Shown: in pieces, positions 5,855 to 46,283 of the stretch
Numbering within the stretch: the stretch's first letter is position 1
Layout of the letters: the number at the start of each line of letters is the position of its first letter
Source of the DNA: an uncultured Actinomycetes bacterium
GTDB lineage: Bacteria > Actinomycetota > Thermoleophilia > Gaiellales > JAICJC01
Reading direction: 5' to 3'
Assembly: GCA_963797565.1 (NCBI GenBank)
Contig: CAWCPM010000002.1
Coordinates: 321,560 to 385,559, forward strand
DNA length: 64,000 nt
Notes under the pieces: generated by a model
What the model was told of the DNA's origin: nothing
Seen by the model: the letters and a program-made list of their open reading frames with translations, nothing else
Database searches by the model: none
Translations under genes and position numbers: made by a program

Positions 5855-6153
5855 AAGCCGAGCACGAACTTCGCGTCGTCCGACATCATCTCGGGCGACC
5901 ACGGCGGCGTCCAGGTCAGGTCGGTGACGACCTCGCCCACGCCCTCCATCGAAGAGACCACGTCGCGCATCTGCTCCTGGATCATCGCCCCGGCCGGGCA
6001 GCCCATCGACGTCAGCGAATAGGTGACGGTGACCTTGTTCTCGTCCTCCACCCGCACGTCGTAGACCAGGCCGAGGTCGACCACGTCCATCCCCAGCTCC
6101 GGGTCCTCGACCACCCGCAGCGCGTCGAACACCTGCTCCTCGGTGATGCTCAT
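5851..6153 (-). CDS. DUF59 / SufT-like Fe-S assembly protein
   Basis: MSITEEQVFDALRVVEDPELGMDVVDLGLVY..TSMGCPAG.. is typical DUF59. The ATG at 6153 overlaps the upstream stop (6150-6152). Confidence 0.75.
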   Translation of the reverse strand: MSITEEQVFDALRVVEDPELGMDVVDLGLVYDVRVEDENKVTVTYSLTSMGCPAGAMIQEQMRDVVSSMEGVGEVVTDLTWTPPWSPEMMSDDAKFVLGF

Positions 6154-6977
6154 GCCTGCATCGTAGCGTTCGCGTCCCACAGCGCGGCGAACGCCGACTC
6201 GTGCCCCGTCGCCGCCGTCTCGCCCAGCAGCGCCTTCGTCGCGGACACCGCCTCGCGTCCCGCCCGTGCCACCTTCCCGGCCATGCTCTCGGCCCGCCCC
6301 TGCAGCTTCTCGCGCGGCAGCACCGCGTCCACCAGCCCGGTCGTCCGCGCCTCGTCCGCCGACAGCAGGTCACACGTCGCAAACAGCCGTAGCGCCACCC
6401 CCGCACCCAGCAGCCGCGACAGCCGCTGCGCCCCACCCCACGGAGGGCAGTAGCCGAGCTCGTTGTGGATGAAGCGCAGCTTCGCGCCCTGTGCCGCGAT
6501 CCGCCAGTCGCACGCCAGCGCCAGGTCGATCCCGCCGCCCACCGCGTGCCCGTTCATCAGCGCCACGGTCGGAACGCCCGCCGCCGCGATCCGGTCACAC
6601 GCGCGGCTGCCGCGCTCCGTGACCTCCTTGCCGGGAAGCTCGCGCACCCGCTCGAGATCCGCCCCCGAGCAGAAGATGCGGCTGCCGGAGCCGGTGATCG
6701 CGATCATCCGCACCGACTCGTCGGCCGCCAGCCGCTCCACCTCGTCGGCCAGCTGCTCCAGCGTCTCCAGCGCCAGCGCGTTCTCGCCGCCCTGGCCGCG
6801 CAGCATCAGCACCGCCAGCCCGTCCCGCACCGCCGCCGTCTCGACCACCGTCGGCCCCGGCGGAGGCAGATCGCCGACCGCCTCCAACAGCTCCGCCTTC
6901 GACAACAGCCTGTAGCCGTCGATCCCGCGCTCGCGTGCCAGCTCGTGCAGCTCGAACAGCTGTGGCTCGGCCGTCAC
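6150..6977 (-). CDS. enoyl-CoA hydratase/isomerase (crotonase) family protein with Rho_N-like N-terminus
   Basis: Crotonase-fold motifs (..ITGSGSRIFCSGADL.., ..ALMNGHAVGGGIDLALACD..). N-terminal ..LHELARERGIDGYRLLSKAELLEAV.. resembles a Rho N-terminal/SAP-like helix pair. Confidence 0.7.
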   Translation of the reverse strand: MTAEPQLFELHELARERGIDGYRLLSKAELLEAVGDLPPPGPTVVETAAVRDGLAVLMLRGQGGENALALETLEQLADEVERLAADESVRMIAITGSGSRIFCSGADLERVRELPGKEVTERGSRACDRIAAAGVPTVALMNGHAVGGGIDLALACDWRIAAQGAKLRFIHNELGYCPPWGGAQRLSRLLGAGVALRLFATCDLLSADEARTTGLVDAVLPREKLQGRAESMAGKVARAGREAVSATKALLGETAATGHESAFAALWDANATMQA

Positions 6978-7987
6978 AGGCGAATCTCCTCATGTCGGGT
7001 CTTCGAGAACAGATGGATCGAATCGATGAAGCGGACGCGGTTGCAGCGCGAGCACAGCACGATCGACTGCGTGCGGGCGCCCTCCGCGAAGTAGCGCACG
7101 CCGCGCAGCAGGTCGCCGTTCGAGATGCCGGTGCCGACCACCATCTGGTGGCCCCTGACCAGGTCGTCGATGCCGAAGATCTGGTTGATGTCGTCGATGC
7201 CGTACTCGCCGGCCTGCCGGATCTCGGTGCGGCTCATCGGCCACAGCTGGCCCTGGATCTCGCCGCCCAGGCAGTGCAGCGCCGCCGCCGAGATGATGCC
7301 CTCGAACGAGCCGCCGATGCCCACCGCCAGGTGGTCGTTGGTGCCGCGGATGGCGGCATCGATCGTGGCCGTGATGTCGCCGTCGGCGATCACCTTGATG
7401 CGCGCGCCGGCCTCGCGGATCTCGGCGATCAGGTCGTCGTGCCGGGGCCGGTCGAGCACCACCGCGGTGATGTCCCCCACCTGGCGACCGAACGCCTCGG
7501 CGATCGCCTGCAGGTTCTCCGTCACGCCCTGGCGCAGGTCGATCCGGCCCTTCGCGACCGGGCCGACGGCCATCTTCTTCATGTACATCCGCGGCACCCG
7601 CGTGATGCCGCCCGGCTCGCAGGCGGCCAGGATCGAGAGCGCGCCCACCCCGCCTCGCCCGACCACCGCAGCACCTTCGACCGGGTCGCAGGCCAGCTCC
7701 AGCTCCATGCCGCCGCCGCCCATGGTCGCGCCCGGCGCCAGCGGGTGGCCCTGCTCGCTGCGGCCGATCACGACCGTGCCGCTGACGGGCAGCGCGTCGA
7801 TCGCACGCACCATCGCCTCGCAGGCGGCCGTGTCCGCGCCGCGCGGGTCACCCCGACCCAGATAGCGGCCCGCCGCCAGGGCGCTGCGCTCGCTGACCGA
7901 CGCCAGGTCGGTGCAGGGGCAGCGCTCGTCCGACAGCTTCGGCTCCGGCCGCGGCTGCTGCTTGGGGCTACGAGCCTTGGTGGCCAT
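6974..7987 (-). CDS. glpX: class II fructose-1,6-bisphosphatase
   Basis: 337-aa ORF with GlpX-like sequence over its whole length (..ACEAMVRAID.., ..VLDRPRHDDLIAEIREAGARIK..DGD..). Confidence 0.85.
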   Translation of the reverse strand: MATKARSPKQQPRPEPKLSDERCPCTDLASVSERSALAAGRYLGRGDPRGADTAACEAMVRAIDALPVSGTVVIGRSEQGHPLAPGATMGGGGMELELACDPVEGAAVVGRGGVGALSILAACEPGGITRVPRMYMKKMAVGPVAKGRIDLRQGVTENLQAIAEAFGRQVGDITAVVLDRPRHDDLIAEIREAGARIKVIADGDITATIDAAIRGTNDHLAVGIGGSFEGIISAAALHCLGGEIQGQLWPMSRTEIRQAGEYGIDDINQIFGIDDLVRGHQMVVGTGISNGDLLRGVRYFAEGARTQSIVLCSRCNRVRFIDSIHLFSKTRHEEIRL

Positions 7988-33186: not shown

Positions 33187-33215
33187 TTGCGTTTGCCCGA
33201 AACGTTCTGTATGTT
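33187..33215 (+). promoter_or_regulatory. candidate sigma-70-type promoter TTGCGT-17-TATGTT
   Basis: The -35/-10-like hexamers have 17-nt spacing and sit in the AT-rich stretch after typA, 10 nt before a small ORF (ATG 33226). Confidence 0.35.
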
Positions 33216-33225
33216 GGGAGTCGCA

Positions 33226-33333
33226 ATGACGAAATTGTCTGACATCGAAATGTTCGCCGCCCGATCGACCTCCGTCGATCCGGTGACACATGGCCGGCTG
33301 GATAGCCAGCCCGGCACGGAGGCCCTCGCCTAG
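33226..33333 (+). CDS. possible 35-aa small ORF (MTKLSDIEMFAARSTSVDPVTHGRLDSQPGTEALA)
   Basis: Below the ORF-track cutoff. GGGAG lies 5 nt upstream of the ATG. Followed by hairpin repeat R1. No homology judgement is possible. Confidence 0.25.
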   Translation: MTKLSDIEMFAARSTSVDPVTHGRLDSQPGTEALA

Positions 33334-33371
33334 GACCTGGATTCGAGCAACAGCTCACCACAGGACCACGC

Positions 33372-33397
33372 GAGGGCGACTCACACGAGTCGCCCTC
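33372..33397 (+). repeat. hairpin repeat R1 (gagggcgact-cacacg-agtcgccctc)
   Basis: 10-bp perfect stem. Shares the core GAGGGCGA..TCGCCCTCA(R)TCGTT with R2. Confidence 0.6.
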
Positions 33398-33643
33398 AGT
33401 CGTTAACAACACATCACGCGCGATCCGAACGAAGGACACGAACACCACCATGACCGCGACAACCTTGAACACCGCCATGCTGACCGGCGCCTGGGCGAAA
33501 CACCTCGCCCCTGCGACGCCGCCGCATGCCTGTGATCGGGGTGTCGAAGCCTCTGATACCAGCGTGCAGCCCCGCGCGGACACCCTCATCTCAAGGAGCG
33601 TGCAGACCTAGAAACGGGTCAACGACACGCAATCCGGCGAGAT

Positions 33644-33669
33644 GAGGGCGATCCCAAGGGGTCGCCCTC
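33644..33669 (+). repeat. hairpin repeat R2 (gagggcga-tcccaagggg-tcgccctc)
   Basis: 8-bp outer stem with the same arms as R1. Followed by aatcgttta (R1 is followed by agtcgttaa). Confidence 0.6.
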
Positions 33670-33742
33670 AATCGTTTAAGCCCTCCCAGGTCGGGAGCAT
33701 CAGCAGAGAGGCTCGAATCCTCTCAAGGGCAATCCGGGAAAA

Positions 33743-33856
33743 CCCTGGCGCTGCTGGGGAGGACTCGCACAGTGCCGCAAGGCGTGCGGGGGCCGGCCCT
33801 CCACGAGGAGGAGTCCGGTTGGGAACTCGGGGACCTGACGAGAGAAAACGCCAGGG
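33743..33856 (+). ncRNA. candidate structured RNA of unknown class
   Basis: Nested helices seen by eye: ccctggcg(33743-50)/cgccaggg(33849-56); ggactc(33761-66)/gagtcc(33811-16), which encloses gcc-GCAA-ggc (a GNRA tetraloop hairpin) and cctcc-acga-ggagg. Confidence 0.3.
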
Positions 33857-33916
33857 GACCGATACCGACGGCTGAGAGGGAACTGGAGCTGATGTGCACG
33901 TGGTGAAGTTATTCGC

Positions 33917-33989
33917 GGCGCCGTGACCGAGTGGCTCAGGTAGCAGGTTGCAACCCTGCTCTAGGACGGTTCGATTCCGTCCGGCGCCT
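33917..33989 (+). tRNA. tRNA-Cys(GCA)
   Basis: Acceptor ggcgccg/cggcgcc, anticodon stem gcagg/cctgc with loop ttGCAac, T arm gacgg-ttcgatt-ccgtc. No encoded CCA. Confidence 0.85.
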
Positions 33990-34031
33990 CTCCGGATCCG
34001 CGGGATAGTTGATAGGTAACACCGATACCGT

Positions 34032-34104
34032 GGGGTGGTAGCTGAGACGGTCCAAGCGCCCGGTTGAAGCCCGGGAGACGAGGATTCGAGCGCCTCTCAC
34101 CCCA
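34032..34104 (+). tRNA. tRNA-Phe(GAA), atypical T stem
   Basis: Acceptor ggggtgg/tcacccc, anticodon stem cccgg/ccggg with loop ttGAAgc. T arm gagga-ttcgagc-gcctc has an A-G mismatch at the normally G53-C61 pair. Confidence 0.65.
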
Positions 34105-34119
34105 CCTTTTGACACCTTT

Positions 34120-34191
34120 GGGGGTGTGGCTCAGTGGCAGAGCATCCGCTTGTCGAGCGGTAGGTCGCGAGTTCGATTCTCGCCATCCCCG
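34120..34191 (+). tRNA. tRNA-Asp(GTC)
   Basis: Acceptor gggggtg/catcccc, D stem gctc/gagc, loop ttGTCga, T arm gcgag-ttcgatt-ctcgc. Confidence 0.8.
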
Positions 34192-34216
34192 TGCAGTAAC
34201 GGACGTTTCACCACAC

Positions 34217-34299
34217 ACCGGCATGGCGGAATGGGTAGACGCGCTGGTCTCAGAAACCAGTGGAGATTCTCCGTGGGGGTTCGACTCCCTCTGCCGGTA
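34217..34299 (+). tRNA. tRNA-Leu(CAG), type II
   Basis: Acceptor accggca/tgccggt (A1-U72), D region gcggaatgggtagacgc, anticodon stem ctggt/accag with loop ctCAGaa, long variable arm ggagattctcc, T arm ggggg-ttcgact-ccctc. Confidence 0.85.
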
Positions 34300-34312
34300 C
34301 TCGCTGAGCTTC

Positions 34313-34388
34313 GGGGGATGGGACTGCTGGGAGTGGTCACTCGGTTTGCACCCGGGACTACAGGCGGGTTCGATGCCCGCATCCTCCA
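34313..34388 (+). tRNA. tRNA-Ala(TGC), atypical variable region
   Basis: Acceptor gggggat/atcctcc, anticodon stem ctcgg/ccggg with loop ttTGCac, T arm gcggg-ttcgatg-cccgc. The 7-nt variable region and a one-nt 8-9 connector are unusual. Confidence 0.65.
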
Positions 34389-34408
34389 CTCGCACGTGCA
34401 CGACACTT

Positions 34409-34482
34409 GCCCTCGTAGCTCAATGGACCAGAGTGCCAGGCTTCGAACCTGGTGGTTGGAGGTTCGAATCCTCCCGAGGGCT
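34409..34482 (+). tRNA. tRNA-Arg(TCG)
   Basis: Acceptor gccctcg/cgagggc, D arm tagctcaatggaccagagt, anticodon stem ccagg/cctgg with loop ctTCGaa, T arm ggagg-ttcgaat-cctcc. Confidence 0.88.
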
Positions 34483-34489
34483 TCGCGAT

Positions 34490-34573
34490 GGGGATGCACT
34501 GGGAATGCGGCGATCCCAAGTGGCTGTAAACCACCCGCCTCCGGCTCTGGCAGTTCGACTCTGTCCGTCCCCA
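34490..34573 (+). tRNA. tRNA-Tyr(GTA), type II
   Basis: Acceptor ggggatg/cgtcccc, loop ctGTAaa, variable arm gcc-tcc-ggc, T arm ggcag-ttcgact-ctgtc. Confidence 0.8.
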
Positions 34574-34583
34574 CTCATCAAAT

Positions 34584-34656
34584 GCCTCTGTAGTTCACTG
34601 GACAGAACGCGAGCGTGCGAAGCTCGAGGCCGGAGGTTCGATTCCTCCCAGAGGCG
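34584..34656 (+). tRNA. tRNA-Arg(GCG)
   Basis: Acceptor gcctctg/cagaggc, anticodon stem cgagc/gctcg with loop gtGCGaa, T arm ggagg-ttcgatt-cctcc. G34 rather than the usual bacterial A34. Confidence 0.8.
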
Positions 34657-34666
34657 TGCACCCCAC

Positions 34667-34738
34667 GGCGAGTGGGGTCTGGCGATCCGGCAGCTCTCAT
34701 ACGGCTGCGCCAAGCCGGTTCGATTCCGGCGCTCGCTA
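34667..34738 (+). tRNA. tRNA-Met(CAT)-like, atypical D arm
   Basis: Acceptor ggcgagt/gctcgct (G1-U72 and U7-G66 wobbles), anticodon stem cagct/ggctg with loop ctCATac, T arm gccgg-ttcgatt-ccggc. The D arm folds as 5 bp plus a 4-nt loop. Initiator, elongator or Ile2 identity cannot be decided. Confidence 0.55.
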
Positions 34739-34743
34739 TCCAT

Positions 34744-34818
34744 GGTGGCCGTAGCTCAAAACGGTAGAGCCCCTGGTTGTGGACCAGGCGGTTGCCGGTT
34801 CGAACCCGGCCGGTCACC
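34744..34818 (+). tRNA. tRNA-His(GTG) with encoded G-1
   Basis: G-1 at 34744 opposite C73. Acceptor gtggccg/cggtcac, D stem gctc/gagc, loop ttGTGga, T arm gccgg-ttcgaac-ccggc. Confidence 0.88.
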
Positions 34819-34831
34819 CCTCCTGACACCC

Positions 34832-34903
34832 AGGGGCGTGATGTAAAGGCCAGCATGCGAGGCTCCAACCCTCGTCGTCCGGGTTCGACCCCTGGCGCCC
34901 CTG
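34832..34903 (+). tRNA. tRNA-Trp(CCA)
   Basis: Acceptor aggggcg/cgcccct (A1-U72), anticodon stem cgagg/cctcg with loop ctCCAac, T arm ccggg-ttcgacc-cctgg. The only member followed by CCA (34904-34906). Confidence 0.8.
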
Positions 34904-34923
34904 CCAAGCGCTGCACCACCCCA

Positions 34924-35017
34924 GTCGCGGGCCGACGCACGTCGGTTCTCGTGGACCCACTCACAATGGGGCCGGGTTCGATCCCCGGCATTCCGGCATG
35001 CACCTCATGACCGCGAC
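34924..35017 (+). ncRNA. tRNA-derived RNA 1 (Y-RNA-like paralog; not a functional tRNA fold)
   Basis: Has a 5' acceptor-like strand gggccga, D arm cacg-tcggttct-cgtg, a hairpin with loop ctcacaa and T arm ccggg-ttcgatc-cccgg. It has no variable region and no 3' acceptor strand. The ends gtcgcgg/ccgcgac pair 7/7, and the flanks are shared with element 2. Confidence 0.5.
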
Positions 35018-35036
35018 GCTGACGACGCAAACGCCC

Positions 35037-35170
35037 GACGCGGGCCGACGCGCACTGGTTACCACTGTGAATGGTCCAGGTAGCAGGTTCGACTCCTGCC
35101 CGGCCGGAGCGATCCGGCCAGTAGCTCAACGGTAGAGCGGGAACTCCAGTCCGCACCACATGACCGCGTC
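35037..35170 (+). ncRNA. YrlA-type Y RNA candidate (circularly permuted tRNA-like RNA)
   Basis: Order along the strand: ggtcc, 5-nt aggta, T arm gcagg-ttcgact-cctgc (35083-99), ccggccg, loop gagcgatc, cggccag (a closed acceptor-like helix), ta, D arm gctc-aacggta-gagc (35124-38), g, ggaac. The terminal stem gacgcgg/ccgcgtc pairs 7/7. It ends 36 nt before the rsr ATG. Confidence 0.7.
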
Positions 35171-35206
35171 ATTCCATCCACTCGATCTCCCGAAAGGAGG
35201 CCACCC

Positions 35207-36871
35207 ATGTCGTATCTGACCCGACTCCACAACCTCGCGACCACACAGCGCGAGCGCCTGCGCACCGACCAGGTGCCGAACTCCGAGGGCGGCTACGTCT
35301 GGGAGGTCGACATCTGGACGCGGCTGCGCCGGTTCCTGATCCTCGGCTCCGAGGCCGGCTCGTTCTACGCGTCGGAGCGGAAGCTGACGATCGCAAACAC
35401 ACGAGCGCTCGATGCCTGCATCGAACAGGACGGCGCCCGCACCGTCGAGCTGATCGCCGAGATCAGCGAGGCCGGCCGGGCACCGAAGAACGACCCGGCC
35501 GTGTACGCGCTGGCACGATGCGCGTCGGCGGCCGACGTCGTCACACGCCGGGCGGCGCTGGCAGCCCTGCCGCGAGTGTGCCGAACCGGCACCCACCTGT
35601 TCCAGTTCGCGACCATCGTGAACGAGCAGCGCGGATGGGGCCGGGCGCTGCGGCGCGCGGTGGGAGCGTGGTACGCAGCACGGGACGCGGACGCGATCGC
35701 CTACCAGGCGGTCAAGTACCGCCAGCGGGAGGGGTTCACCCACCGCGACGTGCTGCGGCTCGCGCACCCGGCGCGGCTGGTCTCGGCCGGCAACCCGACG
35801 CTGGACATCTCGACCGAGCAGGCTCGCCTGTTCGAGTGGATCGTCCGGGGCGGGGACACCGACGGGCTGCCGCGCATCGTCGAGGGCTACACCCGCGCAC
35901 AGCGGGCCGGATCGGCCGATGAGGCCGCCCGGCTGGTGCGTGAGTACCAGCTGCCGCGGGAGGCGCTGCCGTCGGAGCACCTGACCAGCTCCGCGGTTTG
36001 GGAGGCGCTGCTCGAGACGATGCCGATGACGGCGATGATCCGGAACCTGGCGACGATGACGCGCGTGGGCCTGCTCACGCCGGGATCGCCGTCGGTGCGG
36101 CTGATCACCGAGCGGCTGTCGGATGGCGCGCGGATCCGCAAGGCCCGCGTCCACCCGATCGCGCTGCTGGTGGCGGCGCGCACCTACGCCTCCGGGCGGG
36201 GTGTCCGCGGCCACGCCTCCTGGACGCCGGTAACCGCCATCGTCGACGCGCTCGACGAGGCCTTCTACCTCGCGTTCGGGAACGTCCAGCCGACCGGCAA
36301 GCGGCTGCTGCTCGCGCTCGACGTGTCGGGGTCGATGACCTTCGGCTCGATTGCGGGCATGCCGGGGCTCACGCCCCGGGACGCATCGGCAGCGATGGCG
36401 CTGGTCACGCTGGCCGTCGAGCGACACGTCGAGGTGGTCGGCTTCCACGCCGGCCGCGGCGGCTGGGTCGCTCGTCGTCGGGGACGGTTCCAGGGGCGCG
36501 CCGACGCCCTCACGCCGCTCCCGCTGTCGGCTCGGCAGCGCCTGGACGACGCGGTCCGCCGCGTGTCCGACCTGCCGTTCGGCGGCACCGACTGTGCCCT
36601 GCCGATGCGCTACGCGCTGGAGCAGGGACGGGCGGTCGACACGTTCGTGATCTACACCGACTCGGAGACCTGGGCTGGGGACATGCACCCGGCCGAGGCG
36701 CTGCGCCGCTACCGCCAGAGCACCGGCATCGCGGCACGGCTGGTCGTGGTCGGAATGGTCGCGAACCGCTTCACCATCGCCGACCCGAACGACGCCGGCA
36801 TGCTCGACGTCGTCGGGTTCGACACCTCGACACCGCAGGTGATCGGCGGGTTCGCCCGTGGCGAGCTGTAA
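35207..36871 (+). CDS. rsr: Ro60-related protein Rsr (TROVE + vWA domains)
   Basis: ..QVPNSEGGYVWEVDIWTRLRRFLILGSEAGSFYASERKLT..ISEAGRAPKNDPAVYALA.. closely follows the Rsr/Ro60 N-terminus as I remember it. The C-terminal vWA domain has a MIDAS motif, LLLALDVSGSM. SD GGAGG is upstream. Confidence 0.85.
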   Translation: MSYLTRLHNLATTQRERLRTDQVPNSEGGYVWEVDIWTRLRRFLILGSEAGSFYASERKLTIANTRALDACIEQDGARTVELIAEISEAGRAPKNDPAVYALARCASAADVVTRRAALAALPRVCRTGTHLFQFATIVNEQRGWGRALRRAVGAWYAARDADAIAYQAVKYRQREGFTHRDVLRLAHPARLVSAGNPTLDISTEQARLFEWIVRGGDTDGLPRIVEGYTRAQRAGSADEAARLVREYQLPREALPSEHLTSSAVWEALLETMPMTAMIRNLATMTRVGLLTPGSPSVRLITERLSDGARIRKARVHPIALLVAARTYASGRGVRGHASWTPVTAIVDALDEAFYLAFGNVQPTGKRLLLALDVSGSMTFGSIAGMPGLTPRDASAAMALVTLAVERHVEVVGFHAGRGGWVARRRGRFQGRADALTPLPLSARQRLDDAVRRVSDLPFGGTDCALPMRYALEQGRAVDTFVIYTDSETWAGDMHPAEALRRYRQSTGIAARLVVVGMVANRFTIADPNDAGMLDVVGFDTSTPQVIGGFARGEL

Positions 36872-36876
36872 CACGG

Positions 36877-36911
36877 CCCGGGCAGGGAGCGTTCGTGACT
36901 CCCTGCCCGGG
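36877..36911 (+). terminator. 13-bp perfect hairpin after rsr (cccgggcagggag-N9-ctccctgcccggg)
   Basis: Starts 6 nt after the rsr stop. No U-tract follows, so it could be a terminator, an attenuator or a processing/stability element. Confidence 0.5.
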
Positions 36912-36933
36912 GGCGGTCGAACGGCACGCACCT

Positions 36934-37006
36934 GGACGCATAGCTCAGCAGGTAGAGCGCTCGCCCGACATGCGAGAGGTGCCAGGTTCGACCCCTGGTG
37001 CGTCCA
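36934..37006 (+). tRNA. tRNA-Val(GAC) with C33
   Basis: Acceptor ggacgca/tgcgtcc, D arm tagctcagcaggtagagc, anticodon stem ctcgc/gcgag with loop ccGACat (C rather than U at position 33), T arm ccagg-ttcgacc-cctgg. Confidence 0.7.
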
Positions 37007-37008
37007 TT

Positions 37009-37082
37009 GCCCGCGTAGCTCAGAGGATGAGAGCGCTCCGCTCCTACCGGAGAAGCCGCACGTTCGAGTCGTGCCGCGGGCG
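37009..37082 (+). tRNA. tRNA-Arg(CCT)
   Basis: Acceptor gcccgcg/cgcgggc, anticodon stem ctccg/cggag with loop ctCCTac, T arm gcacg-ttcgagt-cgtgc. Only 2 nt after tRNA-Val. Confidence 0.88.
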
Positions 37083-37085
37083 CCT

Positions 37086-37158
37086 GGGGTCATAGCTCAA
37101 CTGGCAGAGCGCCCGGCTCTTAACCGGGAGGTTGGGGGATCGTTGCCCTCTGACCCCA
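37086..37158 (+). tRNA. tRNA-Lys(CTT), non-canonical T loop
   Basis: Acceptor ggggtca/tgacccc, D arm tagctcaactggcagagc, anticodon stem cccgg/ccggg with loop ctCTTaa. T arm ggggg-atcgttg-ccctc, where A and U replace the usual T54 and A58. Confidence 0.7.
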
Positions 37159-37178
37159 TCTGCGGGTCTGCACATCGT

Positions 37179-37262
37179 GGAAGCGATCCGGCTGGATCAG
37201 GAGCCTGTCTCGAAAACAGGTAGGAGGGTCACCTCTTGGGCGTTCGAGTCGCCCCGCTTCCG
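37179..37262 (+). tRNA. tRNA-Ser(CGA), type II
   Basis: Acceptor ggaagcg/cgcttcc, anticodon stem cctgt/acagg with loop ctCGAaa, long variable arm aggagggtcacctctt, T arm gggcg-ttcgagt-cgccc. Confidence 0.85.
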
Positions 37263-37321
37263 CTCGCCTTCGCGGTCTTCGACGGCATCCGGCCGACGCG
37301 GTGGCCCGGTAGAGTCGCGCG

Positions 37322-37909
37322 ATGGCAGACTTTGAGTGCGCAGTCGTTGCCGAGTCTGAGCGAGATCGGGCGACTCGCGTCCTGGTGTCGGCGTTCGAGG
37401 ATGACCCTGTTGAGCGCTGGCTCTATCCGGATGACGCCGTCTATCGAGACCATTTTCCGGCGTTCATCGCGGCGTTCGGCGGTGACGCGTTCCACGATCA
37501 GACCGTCTGGCGGCTGGGGGATTTCGACGCGGTGGCGTTCTGGTTTGCGCCGGGGCGCGAGCCAGATGGCGCCGCGGTGGTACGAGTACTGGTGGAGACG
37601 ACTGCCGAACATCTGCACGCTGATTCGTTCGCGACGTTGGAGCAGATGGCCGAGGGGCATCCCGCAGGCCAGCACTGGTACCTGCCGTGGTTTGGAGTGC
37701 AGCGCACCCTCCAGGGACGGGGACTCGGCACGCATCTCATGCGCCACTGCCTGGAGATCGTGGACGCGAGTGGCTTCCCGGCGTACCTGGAGACGCCGAA
37801 CCCGCGAACCGTGCCGTTCTACGAGCGCGCCGGATTCACGGTCACCGGGACTGCTCAGGCGGGAGCCTGCCCTCCGATCACCATGATGCAGCGGGCCCCG
37901 CGCAGATAG
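37322..37909 (+). CDS. GNAT family N-acetyltransferase
   Basis: Acetyl-CoA motif ..VQRTLQGRGLGTHLM.. and C-terminal ..YLETPNPRTVPFYERAGF... Confidence 0.8.
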   Translation: MADFECAVVAESERDRATRVLVSAFEDDPVERWLYPDDAVYRDHFPAFIAAFGGDAFHDQTVWRLGDFDAVAFWFAPGREPDGAAVVRVLVETTAEHLHADSFATLEQMAEGHPAGQHWYLPWFGVQRTLQGRGLGTHLMRHCLEIVDASGFPAYLETPNPRTVPFYERAGFTVTGTAQAGACPPITMMQRAPRR

Positions 37910-37954
37910 CGCGACTGCACGCGCGAGGCGCCCTTGACGACGGTGCCGGGAACG

Positions 37955-38042
37955 GGATGGGTGGCAGAGTGGGAATGCAGCGCCCTGCTACGGCGTAGGC
38001 CGGCCGCGAGCCGGTCCGCGGGTTCGATCCCCGCCCCATCCG
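37955..38042 (+). tRNA. tRNA-Ser(GCT), type II
   Basis: Acceptor ggatggg/cccatcc, anticodon stem gcgcc/ggcgt with loop ctGCTac, long variable arm ggccggccgcgagccggtc, T arm gcggg-ttcgatc-cccgc. Confidence 0.85.
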
Positions 38043-38056
38043 TCGACGCATGACTT

Positions 38057-38128
38057 TCCGGAGTGGCCGAGTGGACAGGCGCACGGTTGTTACCCGTGAC
38101 CACGTGGGTTCGATCCCTACCTCCGGAG
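38057..38128 (+). tRNA. tRNA-Asn(GTT)
   Basis: Acceptor tccggag/ctccgga (U1-A72), anticodon stem cacgg/ccgtg with loop ttGTTac, T arm gtggg-ttcgatc-cctac. Confidence 0.8.
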
Positions 38129-38139
38129 CTGGCTCAAAA

Positions 38140-38215
38140 GGGGGGCAGGTGTCCGTGGTCTTCGGCACGCTCGTCTGATACGCGAGAGGGCTTGGTTCGA
38201 CTCCAGGGTCCCCCA
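38140..38215 (+). tRNA. tRNA-Ile(GAT)
   Basis: Acceptor ggggggc/gtccccc, large 12-nt D loop, anticodon stem ctcgt/gcgag with loop ctGATac, T arm cttgg-ttcgact-ccagg. Confidence 0.78.
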
Positions 38216-38220
38216 CTCGA

Positions 38221-38291
38221 TGCGAGGTCGTCTAACGGCAGGACGCCTGGCTCTGACCCAGGTAATCGGGGTTCGAAACCCTGCCTCGCAG
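38221..38291 (+). tRNA. tRNA-Gln(CTG)
   Basis: Acceptor tgcgagg/cctcgca (U1-A72, as in bacterial tRNA-Gln), anticodon stem cctgg/ccagg with loop ctCTGac, T arm cgggg-ttcgaaa-ccctg. Confidence 0.82.
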
Positions 38292-38298
38292 CCATCAC

Positions 38299-38370
38299 GG
38301 CACCATCGGCTAACGGATAGGCCGCCGGGTTCTCAGTCCGGAGATCGGAGTTCGAATCTCCGTGGTGCTA
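38299..38370 (+). tRNA. tRNA-Glu(CTC)
   Basis: Acceptor ggcacca/tggtgct (G1-U72), anticodon stem ccggg/tccgg with loop ttCTCag, T arm cggag-ttcgaat-ctccg. Confidence 0.8.
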
Positions 38371-38377
38371 TCACCCT

Positions 38378-38450
38378 CGGGATGTGGCGCAGTTGGCAGC
38401 GCGCGCGGTTCGGGACCGCGAGGCCGCACGTTCGAATCGTGCCATCCCGA
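38378..38450 (+). tRNA. tRNA-Pro(CGG)
   Basis: Acceptor cgggatg/catcccg (C1-G72, typical of bacterial tRNA-Pro), D stem gcgc/gcgc, anticodon stem cgcgg/ccgcg with loop ttCGGga, T arm gcacg-ttcgaat-cgtgc. Confidence 0.88.
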
Positions 38451-38477
38451 CTCTAAAGAGTCGAAATCCCTAGACCC

Positions 38478-38549
38478 GCCTCCGATGTGTTTCTGGCAGC
38501 ACGCTCGGTTTGTACCCGAGAAGATACGGTTCGACTCCGTACGGAGGCT
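38478..38549 (+). tRNA. tRNA-Thr(TGT)
   Basis: Acceptor gcctccg/cggaggc, anticodon stem ctcgg/ccgag with loop ttTGTac, T arm tacgg-ttcgact-ccgta. Confidence 0.85.
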
Positions 38550-38551
38550 CT

Positions 38552-38884
38552 GGTGTCATCCGGAGGGCATCCCATCGCGGGCCGCGGCAGCGCGGCTCGA
38601 GGAAGGTCCGGACTCGCATGCGCGGGCGACCGCGCATCAAACCGCCCCGGGCGAATACCCCGGGCGACGCGCAGGTGGCGCTGCGCGGACGTGCCTGGCA
38701 ACAGCGACGATGACCGCCCCGGCCGCTCTGGCCGCGGATGCCGCGGGTGAAACGGGCTACAGGCAGCGGGCGAGCAACCCCAAGCGTCCGGTCTCACGAA
38801 GACCGGCAGGTCGGGGGCATAGATGGATGATGGGACGCGCCTCGGCGCCGACAGAATCCGGCCTATCGCCCCCCGGCTGACACC
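38552..38884 (+). ncRNA. rnpB: RNase P RNA, bacterial type A
   Basis: P1 ggtgtcatccggaggg / ccccccggctgacacc. Conserved blocks: cGAGGAAgGTCCGGaCtC (P4 5' strand), atCAAACCGCC, GGGTGAAACGGG, GGCAACAG, GAGCAACCCCAA, TAGATGGATGA, ACAGAATCCGGCCTATCG. About 333 nt. Confidence 0.85.
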
Positions 38885-38894
38885 GCATCACCGA

Positions 38895-38966
38895 GCGACC
38901 GTGGTCAAACGGCAACGACTCCTGGCCTCCAACCAGGCGATACGGGTTCGATCCCCGTCGGTCGCT
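38895..38966 (+). tRNA. tRNA-Gly(TCC) with C33
   Basis: Acceptor gcgaccg/cggtcgc, anticodon stem cctgg/ccagg with loop ccTCCaa (C at position 33), T arm acggg-ttcgatc-cccgt. Confidence 0.7.
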
Positions 38967-39030
38967 CCTCGTTCTCGATCGGTACCGGCGCGACCGCCGT
39001 CGCGATAGGCTGGTTCGGGGTGATCGTGCG

Positions 39031-40266
39031 ATGGAGGACCTTCCCAGCGGAACCGTCACACTCCTCTTCACCGACGTCGAAGGGTCGACGTTGCTCGTCC
39101 AGGCGCTGGGTGCCGCCTACCAGTACGCGCTGGACGGGCACCGCCAGATCCTGAGGGACGCGGTCGCGTCGCACGCGGGCCGCGAGGTGGATTGCCGCGC
39201 CGACGAGTTCCTGGCCTGCTTCCCACGCGCATCCGACGGCCTGGCGGCGGCGATCGCCGCGCAGCTGGCGCTGACGTCGGAGGATTCCCAGCTGCGGGTG
39301 CGGATGGGACTTCACACCGGTGAGCCGGAGCTGATCGGCAACGCGTACATCGGGATCGATGTCAACCGGGCATCGCGAATCTGCGCGGCCGGCCACGGCG
39401 GGCAGATCCTGGTGTCCCAGACCACCCGCGATCTGGCGTCGACAGCCGTCCAGTTCCGCGATCTCGGCACCTACCTGCTCGCCGGCGTCGAGCAGGCCGA
39501 GCGGATCTTCGAGGTGCGCGCCCCCGGTCTGCGCACCTCGTCGCTGCCGCTCCGGGCCGAGCACGACACGGGTACCCCGGTCCGCCGCCGGCGTGGCCTG
39601 CGGCCGCGGCGCGCGCCGGCCTCGTCGCAGCTCGCCGAGACCGCCTGGCGGGCACGGAAGCTGGTCGAGCCGGGGCCGCTCCGTGACGCGCTCACGGGGC
39701 TTGCGGCGGCGCTGTTCGACGCCGACCGCGCCGTCCACCGAGCCGAAGCGCTGCTGGGGAAGATCGACCGCCACCGCATCGCCCGCAGGTTGGCCGAGCA
39801 GCGCGAGCTGTCGCTCGTGTCTCCCCCGGTGGCCGAGCTTGCCGCCGGGACAGACGCGAAGCTGGCCTGCCTCGACCGTCTCGGCGATGACGCCCAGGTC
39901 GTATCCGACCTGGGCGCCGAGGCTGCCGCGCTGCTCGATCGGTCATTCAGCGCCCACGCGGTCGAGCAGATCTGTGAACGGCTGAACCTGGCGATAGGCA
40001 CCCTGGACGGGCAGATCACGGTCACCGCCCGCGCGCACGACGCGCTCAGCTACCGGTTGGCGCGCACCCGCTGGCGCGGCGTGTACCGGCTGGACGCGCT
40101 CTACGTCGTCCCCTACCACGACGAGCTGGGGATCGAGCGCCAGCCCGAGTTCACGGACGCCGGTGAGGCCCGCCGCTTCCGCGAAGGCGTCAAGCTGGCC
40201 CGCCAGGCCAGGAATCGAGGACTCGGCTTCGACCTTCCATGGGATGGATCATCGGGTGGGTCCTGA
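39031..40266 (+). CDS. class III adenylate/guanylate cyclase-domain protein with uncharacterised C-terminal half
   Basis: N-terminal ..GTVTLLFTDVEGSTLLVQ..DEFLACF..RVRMGLHTGEP..GIDVNRASRICAAGHGGQILVS.. is a CYTH-unrelated class III cyclase fold. Residues from about 190 to 411 are helical and Arg/Ala-rich with no motif recognised. Confidence 0.65.
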   Translation: MEDLPSGTVTLLFTDVEGSTLLVQALGAAYQYALDGHRQILRDAVASHAGREVDCRADEFLACFPRASDGLAAAIAAQLALTSEDSQLRVRMGLHTGEPELIGNAYIGIDVNRASRICAAGHGGQILVSQTTRDLASTAVQFRDLGTYLLAGVEQAERIFEVRAPGLRTSSLPLRAEHDTGTPVRRRRGLRPRRAPASSQLAETAWRARKLVEPGPLRDALTGLAAALFDADRAVHRAEALLGKIDRHRIARRLAEQRELSLVSPPVAELAAGTDAKLACLDRLGDDAQVVSDLGAEAAALLDRSFSAHAVEQICERLNLAIGTLDGQITVTARAHDALSYRLARTRWRGVYRLDALYVVPYHDELGIERQPEFTDAGEARRFREGVKLARQARNRGLGFDLPWDGSSGGS

Positions 40267-40295
40267 CTCAAACGGGTCGCCGGCCGCCCGTGCTC

Positions 40296-40369
40296 GCGCG
40301 AGTAGCTCAGCCAGGTAGAGCACCTGCGCCACATGCAGGGTGCCGGCGGTTCGAACCCGTCCTCGCGCA
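40296..40369 (+). tRNA. tRNA-Val(CAC) with C33
   Basis: Acceptor gcgcgag/ctcgcgc, D arm tagctcagccaggtagagc, anticodon stem cctgc/gcagg with loop gcCACat (C at position 33), T arm ggcgg-ttcgaac-ccgtc. Abuts the protease gene stop. Confidence 0.7.
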
Positions 40370-44209: not shown

Positions 44210-44312
44210 GGGGGATCATTCGGGGCACTCGGATCGGTTGACGTTGGGTGAATGCGGGTACTCCGATCTGGTGATGGTGAACGGCCTCGAACATCGGCAC
44301 ACTGGCGCCTCA

Positions 44313-44882
44313 ATGAGGCTCCAAACTCAACGCTCCGCCGGCGATCCGGCAACCGTCGCCGCGGCCGTACGCGACGCTGCGCTGGTGCTGGTCGCCGTGC
44401 AGCAGGTCGACCAGCGGGCGGCGCTCGACCGCGAGCGGCCCGCTCCGACGCCGTCGGAGGTGGCGGAACTGCGCGACGCCGCGCGAGCGGCCGGCGCGCG
44501 CCTGGCCGGCCTCACCGACGGCGGGTCAGCCGTGCTGCTCGAGTATCTGCATGCAAGCCGGGCTCACCTCGCCGGCCGGGCAGGGGCACAGGATGCCATC
44601 CAGGTCGCCACCCACGAGCTGTGGCGCTGCTTCGACCGGCCGATCGCGGCCCTGGTCGGGTTCTGCGCGAACGCGGACGTCGACCTCACGCGCTCGCTGG
44701 ACGCGCCGGGTCGGATCACGCTCTGCTCTACCGACGACTTCATCGTCTGCTGCTGCCGCCTGGCCGAGCAGGGCGCGTACGCCACCTGGCCGTCGGTGGC
44801 GATGGCGCTGCGTCACACCATGCAGCTGATGATCAGCACGCACGCGGCCATGGACGCGGCGTACCCCGACGCGGCCGTCTGA
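44313..44882 (+). CDS. hypothetical 189-aa protein upstream of rtcB
   Basis: ATG at 44313 in ORF 43863..44882. Ala/Leu-rich and helical, with a Cys cluster ..FIVCCCRL... No family recognised. Confidence 0.4.
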   Translation: MRLQTQRSAGDPATVAAAVRDAALVLVAVQQVDQRAALDRERPAPTPSEVAELRDAARAAGARLAGLTDGGSAVLLEYLHASRAHLAGRAGAQDAIQVATHELWRCFDRPIAALVGFCANADVDLTRSLDAPGRITLCSTDDFIVCCCRLAEQGAYATWPSVAMALRHTMQLMISTHAAMDAAYPDAAV

Positions 44883-44930
44883 CCGCGAGATCATCCACAA
44901 TCGGATATCAACGCCCCGGAAGGAGGCGAC

Positions 44931-46283
44931 ATGACCGACCGGCCGGCAACCACGATGGTGGTCGAGGATCGGCCCTACCGCGAGCTCGACGACGGGCTGA
45001 TCGGTGTCTACGGCTACACCTACGACGAGCAGGCGATCACCCAGATCCGCACCGTGTCGCGGCACGGCTGGGTGGCCGGCGCGTCGCTGATGGCCGACAA
45101 CCACGTCGGCTACTCGATGCCGATCGGCGGAGTCGCCGCGTACCGCGAGATGGTCTCGCCCTCGGGCGTCGGCTACGACATCGGCTGCGGCGTGATGGCG
45201 GTGCGCACGGCGCTATCGATCGACGAGGTGCGGGGCGACCTGGGACGGCTGGCCGACGAGATCGCGCGCGGCCTCAGCTTCGGGGTCGGCCGCAAGAATG
45301 CCACCCGCGTCGAGCACCGGCTGTTCGACTCGGAGACATGGGCCGCGGTCCCGGAGCTGACCGAGCAGGTCGCCGGGCGCAAGGGCTCGTGGTCGCTGCG
45401 GGAGCGCGCGGAGGCGCAGCTGGGCACGGTCGGATCCGGCAACCACTACGTCGACCTGCTGGTCGAGCCGGCCGACGGCGCGGTCTGGATCGCCGCACAC
45501 TTCGGCAGCCGCGGCTTCGGCCACGGTGTGGCGACGGGCTTCCTGAACGTCGCAGCGGGCCGCGAGTTCCACGCCGGGCAGATCAGCGGCGAGTCGATGC
45601 ACGCCGTGCCGTCGCTGCTGCCGCTATCGGAGGCGGCGGCGGTCGAGCTCGGCTACGCCGACCCGGCCTGGGCGGCGGAGCAGGGCCGCCGGTATCAGCA
45701 GGCGATGGTGCTGGCCGGCGAGTACGCCTATGCCGGGCGGGAGTACGTGATCTCGGAGGTGCTGGGCATGTTGGGAGCTCCGGAGGTGGTCGAGACGGTG
45801 CACAACCACCACAACTACGCGTGGGATGAGGAGCACGCCGGCGAGCAGCTGCACGTGGTTCGCAAGGGCGCGACGCCCGCGTTCCCGGGCCAGACCGGGT
45901 TCATCGGCGGCTCGATGGGTGACTGGGCGGTCGTGGTCGAGGGCGTCGAGTCGGACCTGGCGGCACGGACCTTCCGCTCGACGGTGCACGGGGCGGGACG
46001 GGTTATGAGCCGCTCCAAGGCTAAGGGCAACCGCAAGGGCACCTTCAAGGGCCTGATCAGCCGGCAGATGATGGCCGAGCGGCTGCATGAGTTCCGAGCC
46101 GAAACCGGCTCGCCGCTCGAGGTGCGAGGCGGCGACGTGGACGAGTCGCCGTTCGTGTACCGGAAGCTGGACGAGGTCGTGCGGGCGCACGAGCAGACCG
46201 ACACCATCAAGGTCACCCATCGGCTGCTGCCGATCGTGGTCGTGATGGCGGGCGCCGACGTGCACGATCCGTTCAAGGACTAG
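44931..46283 (+). CDS. rtcB: RNA 3'-phosphate/5'-OH ligase RtcB
   Basis: ..ADNHVGYSMPIGGV.., ..GYDIGCG.., ..GSGNHY.., ..HNHHNY.., ..GSMG.. metal and guanylylation-site motifs. SD GGAAGGAGG is upstream. Confidence 0.9.
   Translation: MTDRPATTMVVEDRPYRELDDGLIGVYGYTYDEQAITQIRTVSRHGWVAGASLMADNHVGYSMPIGGVAAYREMVSPSGVGYDIGCGVMAVRTALSIDEVRGDLGRLADEIARGLSFGVGRKNATRVEHRLFDSETWAAVPELTEQVAGRKGSWSLRERAEAQLGTVGSGNHYVDLLVEPADGAVWIAAHFGSRGFGHGVATGFLNVAAGREFHAGQISGESMHAVPSLLPLSEAAAVELGYADPAWAAEQGRRYQQAMVLAGEYAYAGREYVISEVLGMLGAPEVVETVHNHHNYAWDEEHAGEQLHVVRKGATPAFPGQTGFIGGSMGDWAVVVEGVESDLAARTFRSTVHGAGRVMSRSKAKGNRKGTFKGLISRQMMAERLHEFRAETGSPLEVRGGDVDESPFVYRKLDEVVRAHEQTDTIKVTHRLLPIVVVMAGADVHDPFKD

Follow-up and report, generated by a model that had tools for sequence, protein, structure and literature searches.

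The 64-kb stretch of DNA analysed here (referred to below as the window), which comes from an uncultured bacterium of the Gaiellales, carries at 33917-40369 an array of 24 tRNA genes interleaved with rsr, which encodes a Ro60 orthologue, with Y RNA-like elements and with several other genes. We read this array as an accessory operon of the long tRNA array type that lies on the chromosome, forms part of an Rsr (Ro60)/Y-RNA operon and provides a stress-gated reserve pool of tRNAs, and we put the probability of this reading at about 60%. The features on which it draws were computed: the gene content, the incompleteness of the tRNA set, the selection on the cloverleaves, the conservation of a promoter and a leader together with the array, and the recurrence of Rsr within such arrays. 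The general kind, a long accessory tRNA array, is known; the composition of this one, with its Rsr/Y-RNA core, its leader and its RNase P-like RNA, is undescribed in the literature searched. Contigs designated by L numbers (L001, L006, L010, etc.) are the loci of relatives with which the window was compared.

With default settings, ARAGORN called 22 tRNA genes in the whole of the 64-kb window, all of them on the + strand and all within 33917-40369. With the option -ps90, it added tRNA-Tyr(GTA) at 34490-34574 and tRNA-Ser(CGA) at 37177-37265, which brings the total to 24, and it also called one implausible tRNA on the opposite strand within rsr. Counterparts of the two added genes are detected at the default setting in sister contigs, and therefore the list of 24 co-directional tRNA genes in an earlier note on this DNA was correct; the order and the anticodons given there match the ARAGORN calls exactly. 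That note had asked for ARAGORN and the Rfam tRNA family RF00005 to be run on the window, in case most members should fall below threshold, and this is not what was found: 19 of the 24 reach the RF00005 gathering score, those below it being Ala, Met, Ile, Tyr and Ser-CGA. The "many structural oddities" to which it referred are real but limited, comprising these five members and three with C33.

The first block, on the + strand like all that follow, consists of eleven genes (RF00005 scores in brackets): tRNA-Cys(GCA) at 33917-33990 (50.6 bits; U73), Phe(GAA) at 34032-34106 (51.4 bits), Asp(GTC) at 34119-34192 (67.5 bits; G73), Leu(CAG) at 34217-34300 (57.7 bits), Ala(TGC) at 34313-34389 (ARAGORN only, with an atypical D-arm and with G3:U70 and A73 present), Arg(TCG) at 34409-34482 (70.7 bits), the class II Tyr(GTA) already located (its orthologues in L010, L006 and L069 are called at default), Arg(GCG) at 34583-34657 (64.2 bits), an elongator-like Met(CAT) at 34667-34738 (with G1-U72 and an anticodon stem without GGG:CCC), His(GTG) at 34745-34820 (60.4 bits; a G-1 at 34744 can pair with C73) and Trp(CCA) at 34832-34906 (49.6 bits). 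After rsr come Val(GAC) at 36933-37007 (61.8 bits; C33), Arg(CCT) at 37009-37084 (62.7 bits), Lys(CTT) at 37085-37160 (60.9 bits) and the class II Ser(CGA), called at default in the same-species contigs L002 and L003. A further seven follow a GNAT acetyltransferase gene: Ser(GCT) at 37955-38042 (54.5 bits), Asn(GTT) at 38057-38129 (50.9 bits), Ile(GAT) at 38140-38216 (ARAGORN only, with an atypical D-arm), Gln(CTG) at 38221-38294 (56.3 bits; U1:A72 and G73), Glu(CTC) at 38299-38370 (54.8 bits), Pro(CGG) at 38378-38451 (64.3 bits) and Thr(TGT) at 38478-38550 (45 bits). Gly(TCC) at 38895-38968 (55.7 bits; C33) lies between an RNase P-like RNA and a cyclase-domain gene, and Val(CAC) at 40296-40369 (54.9 bits; C33) is the last member.

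These 24 genes in one orientation occupy 6.45 kb, as is characteristic of the long arrays (at least 20 tRNA genes, dense and co-oriented). All 20 amino acids are covered, as had been claimed, with three tRNAs for Arg, two each for Val and Ser and one for each of the others. No two members exceed 73% pairwise identity, so the array is non-periodic, shows no sign of recent duplication and, in line with the earlier description, contains no sequence duplicates. The described preference for C34 or G34 also stands (20 of 24, the other four having U). The spacers within blocks are indeed short, the range being 0-41 nt rather than the 2-42 nt given previously, and an encoded CCA follows the discriminator not only in Trp, as was thought, but also in Gln. 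A scan for terminators between 33000 and 40600 found no terminator-like site, as against 2.3 expected from shuffled sequences. Six of the tRNAs (Cys, Leu, Ala, Tyr, Ile and Pro) have a trailer C-U-C directly after the discriminator (e.g., at 33989-33993, 34299-34303, 34388-34392, 34573-34577, 38215-38219 and 38450-38454), and in most of the others the discriminator is followed by C or U and then C; this common motif may be a signal for 3' processing that the tRNAs share.

Over the 780 nt that separate typA from tRNA-Cys, the window is homologous to the DNA preceding the L006 and L069 arrays (nhmmer E-value of 1e-33), and leader homology is also found in L089, L091 and L092. The corresponding regions are 33187-33916 in the window, 7360-8014 in L006, 7359-8015 in L069, about 700-1190 in L089 and about 3160-3810 in L091. 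This leader had been called AT-rich, which is true relative to the 70% GC of the background but not in absolute terms, its own GC content being 61.5%; what escaped the earlier note was that the module includes this leader as a conserved component and that Rsr lies in the tRNA arrays of many lineages. The region starts with a promoter-like site at 33187-33215 (+), composed of a -35 hexamer TTGCGT, a 17-nt spacer and a -10 hexamer TATGTT, and this site is conserved across lineages: the hexamers and their spacing (TTGNNN-17-TATNNT) are constant in five diverged lineages, namely those of the window, L006, L069, L089 and L091.

Downstream of the promoter-like site are two GC-rich, terminator- or attenuator-like hairpins built on one motif. 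Hairpin 1 (GAGGGCGAC...GTCGCCCTC; 33372-33397, +), a conserved motif, shows compensatory changes from A-U to G-C and has U-rich tails in L006 and L069. Hairpin 2 (33644-33669, +), a 12-bp helix that has the support of the six-sequence alignment, lies just 5' of a tRNA-like element, and in L006, L069 and L091 it is followed by a U-tract (e.g., CCCUUUUUCG); the U-tracts in these three contigs are like those of intrinsic terminators. The tRNA-like element (33680-33730, +) comprises a 4-bp acceptor-like stem, a hairpin and a T-arm (GGCUCGAAUCC), with covarying helices. It is followed by a multi-helix core of 155 nt (33733-33887, +) that is closed by UCCGG/CUGGA, that shows covariation and that includes a 54-nt block identical in the window, L006 and L069. 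From the six sequences, RNAalifold predicted 67 pairs, 14 of which show compensatory changes; the stem of a GNRA-capped hairpin in the core, for example, varies by lineage as GCC/GGC, GCG/CGC or GGA/UCC.

A covariance model of the leader, R1, scores 166-216 bits in eight contigs (the window, L010, L087, L006, L069, L089, L091 and L092) and finds no match in other arrays; it detects the leader only in this clade, always upstream of an rsr-containing array; the weak R1 matches fall on true tRNAs. Between the window and L010, the leader is more conserved (98.4% identity) than the DNA of typA (96.2%). Taken together, the sequence comparisons indicate that the leader and the promoter belong to the array module. 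Other identities for the leader were tried. Searches of the leader against Rfam gave no match to any family at E-values up to 10, and those for GOLLD or ROOL between 33000 and 41500 gave none at E-values up to 1, which led to the rejection of GOLLD, ROOL, T-box and other Rfam families. A leader peptide, encoded by an open reading frame (ORF) at 33451-33612 or by one of 77 aa at 33642-33875, was rejected because the first start codon is not conserved; insertions and deletions in the leader are not multiples of three, its substitutions have no synonymous-site bias, and it is therefore considered non-coding. A hammerhead-like motif (CUGACGA...GAAA) was discarded on account of its absence from L006, and a presence of the leader in the arrays of other phyla was discarded too, neither nhmmer nor R1 having found it outside the Gaiellales-like clade.

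Between the first and the second block lie the two tRNA-like RNAs and the rsr gene reported in the earlier note, all of which are real. Y RNA-like element 1 (34924-35017, +) matches the family Deinococcus_Y_RNA with 21.4 bits as against a threshold of 80, and L006 and L010 have kept its paired stem motifs CGCGGGCCGAC and AUGACCGCG. A YrlA-type Y RNA would be expected within 4 kb of rsr at a bacterial Ro60 locus, and the candidate here is Y RNA-like element 2 (35037-35170, +), which resembles the YrlA type with a tRNA-like domain and matches RF02553 with 35.4 bits as against a gathering score of 69; YrlA-like matches occur at the same position in L089 and L097. The rsr gene (35207-36871, +) encodes both the TROVE (PF05731) and the vWA (PF25045, vWA_Ro60) domains, as expected of a Ro60 orthologue, and the protein scores 573 bits with the NCBIfam model RNA-bind_Rsr, which is below the equivalog cut-off of 900. 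Directly after the rsr stop codon, a perfect 13-bp GC-rich hairpin without a U-tract can be read in the sequence (36877-36911, +). It was not called by the terminator scan and could be a partial terminator, or else an element for processing or stabilisation at the junction of rsr and the second tRNA block.

The surroundings of the array are those of an ordinary chromosome: typA is directly upstream, the other neighbours include a znu transporter, peptidases and a dehydrogenase, and among about 30 annotated neighbours there is no integrase, transposase or phage gene. By its TypA and Rsr proteins, the window belongs to the order Gaiellales of the Actinomycetota. Several relatives of the TypA protein that are named Gaiellales are 73-83% identical to it. 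An identical Rsr protein was found only on soil metagenome contigs, and L010, in which Rsr is 98% identical, is named "Gaiellales bacterium SMAG_U1443".

Rsr within tRNA arrays is a wider pattern. In a sample of Rsr relatives from Genome Taxonomy Database (GTDB) genomes and JGI metagenomes, which is biased towards the relatives of this Rsr, 55 of 98 loci of at least 8 kb have at least six co-directional tRNAs near rsr. When loci were merged at 90% Rsr identity and those with less than 3 kb on either side were set aside, 17 of the 41 resulting Rsr lineages (about 40%) bore arrays; they belong to Verrucomicrobiota, Polyangia, Bacteriovoracaceae, Chloroflexia, Leifsonia and the Gaiellales-like group. 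Recurrent in these arrays are genes for RtcB, for a calcineurin-like metallophosphoesterase, for Band-7/SPFH proteins, for HNH endonucleases and for several unknown families, RtcB homologues being found inside or beside Rsr tRNA arrays of other phyla. To our knowledge, the classic model loci in Deinococcus, Salmonella and M. smegmatis have not been described as lying in arrays. Chen et al. in 2014 discarded Y-RNA candidates that overlapped tandem tRNA genes (PMC4201824), and no description of Rsr within tRNA arrays was found in the literature searched. L007, a contig of 70% GC binned as Verrucomicrobiota, encodes an Rsr with 67% identity and has, immediately 5' of its related array and in the same orientation, a LexA gene (6134-7161).

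Among the alternatives, the one that survives best, though it is improbable, is that the array is a leftover of the tRNA array of a phage or other mobile element, persisting without host function; in phages, such arrays supply codons or counter tRNA-targeting defences. Ro-like genes occur in 359 actinophage records, and in Gordonia phage Forza (MK814760) some 30 tRNAs and a tmRNA come directly after the Ro-like gene. Four of 29 Rsr loci in IMG/VR carry arrays, HNH endonucleases recur in the related arrays, the location of the module and the number of its tRNAs vary among related genomes, and the GNAT gene has a deviant GC content at third codon positions (GC3). Set against this are the lack of mobile-element genes among the 30 or so neighbours, the GC3 of rsr and of the cyclase gene, which matches the host, and the distance of the viral proteins: the closest viral Rsr is 51% identical, as compared with 74-98% for the chromosomal-looking relatives, and none of the four array-bearing viral loci is close to the Rsr of the window. 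Moreover, the cloverleaves, the identity elements, the promoter and the leader are under purifying selection across lineages whose Rsr is 75% identical, and hence a remnant devoid of function fits poorly. A recent prophage or island was rejected on the grounds that no mobile-element gene is among the annotated neighbours and that viral Rsr proteins are at most 51% identical and mostly without arrays.

Is the array an accessory set or the primary one? Its decoding capacity was estimated by standard wobble rules, applied generously to U34, and from the codon use of 32 genes in the window. By this estimate, the 24 anticodons cannot read 20 sense codons, which make up 23% of codon use and are led by GGC (6.5%), GCC (5.7%), ACC (3.4%) and CTC (2.3%); if unmodified U34 were to read whole boxes (Gly, Ala and Thr), 17 codons, or about 7% of use, would still be unreadable. 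The sole tRNA with the anticodon CAT has neither three G-C pairs in the anticodon stem nor a C1-A72 mismatch, and the array is therefore without an initiator. A primary set would have to read all sense codons and include an initiator, and the array does neither. The comparison of synteny after typA that the earlier note had suggested also speaks for an accessory set: in three Gaiellales genomes in which TypA is 87-90% identical, there is no tRNA gene within 10 kb of typA.

The distribution of the module is patchy and its genomic contexts differ among relatives, as is typical of long arrays and suggestive of horizontal spread. L006 and L069 have the same module in a place other than beside typA, and the number of tRNAs in the modules of other genomes ranges from 4 to 25. 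Modules with the same leader and rsr contain just four tRNAs in L089 and six in L091/L092, which means that the housekeeping copies of this clade must lie outside the module. In L010, an extra tRNA-Gly(GCC) at 5829-5902 is a clean insertion after Trp (34906/34907 in the window), from which it follows that single tRNA genes are gained or lost within the array. Finally, a neighbouring non-array tRNA in L006/L069 scores 73 bits as against 30-65 bits for array members.

That the array is part of the primary complement, with the sole copies of 24 isoacceptors and the missing decoders elsewhere, is accordingly a very doubtful proposition. It has in its favour the housekeeping neighbourhood directly after typA and the fit between the array anticodons and the preferred codons of most amino acids. 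It has to contend with the missing initiator, with the related genomes in which there is no tRNA near typA, with the modules of four or six tRNAs behind the same leader, and with a strain of 98% Rsr identity that has a Gly-GCC gene absent from the window even though GGC is 6.5% of codons. In addition, array tRNAs are merely 58-84% identical between sister lineages, and the members score below the neighbouring non-array tRNA, five of them failing the Rfam cut-off. A main tRNA operon was thus rejected on the decoding gaps, the absent initiator and the synteny, and the array is very likely accessory rather than the primary complement, a proposal of the earlier note that is supported, if indirectly, by these points and by the variable content of the module.

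The array tRNAs are nonetheless maintained as tRNAs. L006 and L069, in which Rsr is 75% identical, have nearly the same anticodon set as the window and share with it a block in the order Cys-Phe-Leu-Ala-Arg-Tyr-Arg-Met-His-Trp, and the identity of 58-84% just quoted is that of orthologous genes between lineages. When stem pairs were compared with their L006 and L007 partners, 160 compensatory changes, 24 one-sided changes and 42 broken pairs were counted, many of the broken pairs arising because the distant L007 is misaligned. The synthetase identity elements have been retained as well: Ala has G3:U70 and A73, His has G-1:C73, Cys and Gly have U73, Gln has U1:A72 and G73, and Pro has C1:G72 and A73. 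Position 37 is a purine in all 24, and U33, which is near-universal in tRNAs, is present in 21, the exceptions being Val-GAC, Val-CAC and Gly-TCC with C33. In the L006 orthologues, Val-GAC and Gly-TCC have U33 and Val-CAC has C33. The compensatory changes and the retained identity elements indicate that the genes are under selection as tRNAs, albeit fast-evolving and in some cases unusual ones, and a pseudogene array was rejected for the same reasons. The maintained cloverleaves and identity elements also make a role in backup translation plausible.

The choice of anticodons could be that of a set able to work without essential anticodon modifications. Pointers in this direction are C34 in Lys, Glu and Gln, the Arg anticodon GCG in place of ACG, and the lack of a lysidine-dependent Ile tRNA; the choice fits GC-rich codon use equally well. 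The usual bacterial Arg anticodon is ACG, not GCG. The GCG form (34583-34657) is common to the L006 and L069 arrays, and the Polyangium arrays have ACG.

Another explanation to which we give little credence is that these tRNA-like genes are non-translational: their products would distract tRNA-targeting nucleases as decoys, be bound or processed by the Rsr particle as its ligands or substrates, or act as donors in the reactions of tRNA-dependent transferases. It gains something from the tRNA-mimicking Y RNAs in the same operon (PMC4201824), from the members atypical enough to miss the RF00005 cut-off or to carry C33, and from the GNAT-fold enzyme embedded in the array. The arrangement of about one tRNA per amino acid, with anticodons conserved across lineages and with the identity elements for synthetases retained, points instead to decoding; a full set of amino acids would be needless for decoys, and 19 of the 24 are ordinary tRNAs by Rfam score. 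The "decoy" set proposed in the earlier note has no specific support.

The other inhabitants of the array were also listed in that note, as a GNAT, a cyclase and rnpB. The GNAT gene is real: it encodes an acetyltransferase of 195 aa (37322-37909, +; Pfam Acetyltransf_1) that resembles puromycin N-acetyltransferase, its best match among solved structures being that enzyme (7k09; E-value of 4.8e-19 over residues 12-193). It may act on aminoacyl-nucleoside antibiotics or on aminoacyl-tRNA. Its GC3 of 0.77, compared with 0.88-0.93 in neighbouring genes, suggests a later insertion. The cyclase gene (39031-40266, +) is also real, and it encodes a nucleotidyl cyclase rather than an RNA-end cyclase: the protein has a class III nucleotidyl cyclase domain (Pfam Guanylate_cyc) and an uncharacterised C-terminal part of 250 aa, and its best matches among solved structures are the mycobacterial adenylyl cyclases Ma1120 (E-value of 2.6e-18) and LipJ.

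As to rnpB, an RNase P RNA-like element of 323 nt does exist at 38559-38881 (+), 8 nt after tRNA-Thr and 13 nt before tRNA-Gly. It aligns end to end with RF00010 with 23.5 bits (E-value of 1e-5), as against a gathering score of 100, and is thus no member of the family by the Rfam cut-off. It keeps P1-P4, J18/2, the 3' strand of P4 and motifs of the catalytic domain, with two changes from A to G; the conserved regions of the catalytic domain are GAGGAAGGUCC, AUAGAUGGAUG and ACAGAAUCCGGCC, and a P15-like helix carrying a GGU motif is recognisable by eye. In the place of the specificity domain (P7-P14), about 150 nt cannot be aligned, and P18 is absent. The single-sequence fold is uninformative (z = -0.58). 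Copies were found only in the window and in the same-species contigs L001 and L087, with eight transitions among the three, and a test for covariation is impossible because only these near-identical copies exist. Neither nhmmer, nor a motif search, nor Rfam detected such an RNA in the sister arrays or in three other Rfam-scanned arrays.

An RtcB RNA ligase gene (44931-46283, +; Pfam RtcB, E-value of 1.4e-70) lies 4.5 kb downstream of the array and is possibly a functional partner that is not in the array operon. It is preceded by a co-directional ORF of 213 aa with no family match (the pair occupying 44241-46283), and both are in a variable region between typA and a bPH_2 gene pair; in L197, a relative without the array, a bPH_2 gene pair is shortly downstream of typA. 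A known defence system was also considered and rejected, the embedded proteins having no match in PADLOC, in which the lone match was that of the neighbouring S8 peptidase to a generic subtilase.

A scheme for the accessory, stress-gated operon can be drawn from these elements. Transcription would start at the sigma-70-type promoter (33187-33215) and continue through a structured leader of about 700 nt, in the order of two terminator-like hairpins, the tRNA-like element and the 155-nt core. It would then proceed through 11 tRNAs, the two Y RNAs and rsr, through four tRNAs and the GNAT gene, through seven tRNAs and the RNase P-like RNA and, lastly, through tRNA-Gly, the cyclase-domain gene and tRNA-Val. 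Read-through of the leader hairpins would decide whether the unit is expressed. The tRNAs and tRNA-like structures may serve as punctuation for RNase P and 3' end-processing enzymes, whose action would set free the individual tRNAs, Y RNAs, RNase P-like RNA and mRNAs. What results would be a near-minimal reserve pool, with at least one tRNA per amino acid and a preference for the most-used codons, and the Rsr-Y RNA surveillance particle would be made alongside it. This pool might be drawn on once, for example, toxins, phage, antibiotics or other translational stress have damaged or depleted the housekeeping tRNAs, and cleaved tRNAs could be repaired by the RtcB encoded nearby. Co-transcription, attenuation, the processing route and the stress function are what we infer. 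In support of the scheme as a whole are the order of the genes, the shortness of the spacers, the absence of predicted terminators, the conservation of the promoter and leader with the array, the RNA-repair genes in related arrays and a precedent in Anabaena, whose array translational stress induces (PMC8421152). An RNA-stress context is also seen in the rsr and Y RNAs within the array, in the array-bearing Rsr lineages, in phage Forza and in the resemblance of the GNAT to puromycin N-acetyltransferase.

Several observations weigh against this scheme. The promoter is weak by consensus, with 7 of 12 matches and a score below the threshold of the scanner, and the leader hairpins of the window itself have no good U-tracts. 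The hairpin after rsr could end transcription, in which case the later blocks may have promoters of their own. Between the array and RtcB lies a large S8 peptidase gene in the opposite orientation, and the PADLOC defence models have no match to Rsr, GNAT, cyclase or RtcB. Three of the embedded elements, the GNAT, the cyclase and the RNase P-like RNA, were inserted in this lineage specifically and so tell little about the core function. Finally, redundancy with housekeeping tRNAs elsewhere in the genome is something that we only infer.

The closest relatives among known systems are the long tRNA arrays, such as the 23-tRNA trn operon of Anabaena PCC 7120, which was reported in 2021 to be silent until translation is impaired (PMC8421152). 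Like those arrays, the one in the window is non-periodic and co-oriented and contains at least 20 different tRNAs; long arrays are also additional to a dispersed set, as this one very likely is, have a patchy distribution and often have an HNH endonuclease nearby. The silence of the Anabaena array also matches the gated leader proposed here. Unlike them, the array in the window has rsr, Y RNAs, an RNase P-like RNA and protein genes set among its tRNAs and a conserved structured leader in front; Ro60 and RNase P are not mentioned in PMC8421152.

The tRNA array units of Mycobacterium were described by Morgado and Vicente in 2018 (PMC5966550) and, on linear plasmids of M. avium, in PMC12803027. 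These, too, are actinobacterial, cover all 20 isotypes, contain tRNAs that deviate in the D-arm and anticodon arm, have embedded coding sequences and a large structured RNA (GOLLD), and are spread among chromosomes, plasmids and phages. The window differs from them in its Gaiellales host, in its chromosomal context without mobile-element genes, in the lack of GOLLD and tmRNA, and in being centred on Rsr and Y RNAs with an RNase P-like RNA present.

In actinophages (Gordonia phage Forza and the Streptomyces BE phages), a Ro-like gene lies directly before some 30 co-directional tRNAs, which recalls the window. These arrays are, however, on phage genomes, include a tmRNA, and are accompanied by Ro-like proteins that are at most 51% identical. 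R1 did not find the Gaiellales leader in L188, the sole viral array locus from IMG/VR that was scanned with it, a scan that did not extend to Forza. In the cluster C mycobacteriophage Nappy, the annotated tRNAs within 7 kb of the Ro-like gene number just two.

The Salmonella rsr-yrlBA-rtcBA RNA repair operon has been linked to tRNA damage. With this operon and with other bacterial Ro60/Y RNA systems, the window shares an Rsr with candidate tRNA-like Y RNAs adjacent to it and a nearby RtcB; unlike the window, operons of that type have no described tRNA genes (PMC4201824). Unlike in Salmonella, no RtcR or RtcA was identified among the annotated neighbours in the window, and RtcB lies 4.5 kb beyond the array, outside one co-oriented unit. 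As for type A RNase P RNA (RF00010), the RNA in the window resembles it in P1-P4 and in the conserved regions of the catalytic domain, and departs from it in the lack of P18, in a specificity domain that cannot be aligned, in two conserved A residues that are G and in its position inside a tRNA array.

A bolder proposal, which we regard as tentative and more probably wrong than right, is that Rsr/Y-RNA operons with tRNA arrays are a conserved, cross-phylum module that responds to RNA damage, the Gaiellales version of which would be leader-gated, tRNA-punctuated and equipped with a dedicated RNase P paralogue. If this were true, the structured leader RNA of the Gaiellales, with its own tRNA-like element, would gate the expression of the module, a divergent RNase P RNA paralogue would be co-expressed to process the array, and bacterial Y RNAs would have arisen from array tRNAs.

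Long accessory tRNA arrays have as candidate roles backup during translational stress and counter-defence. The locus in the window physically couples such arrays with Ro60/Y RNA, two systems that have so far been studied separately, and this coupling, found in the window and in about 40% of the sampled Rsr lineages, suggests functional links that can be tested. The Rsr-Y RNA particle may monitor or manage the array tRNAs, the Y RNAs may derive from these tRNAs, and RtcB-type repair and the supply of spare tRNAs may be brought into play at the same time. Two new candidate RNAs emerge from the locus as well: an RNase P-like RNA whose catalytic domain looks intact and whose specificity domain has been replaced, and a covariation-supported leader that may control a tRNA operon.

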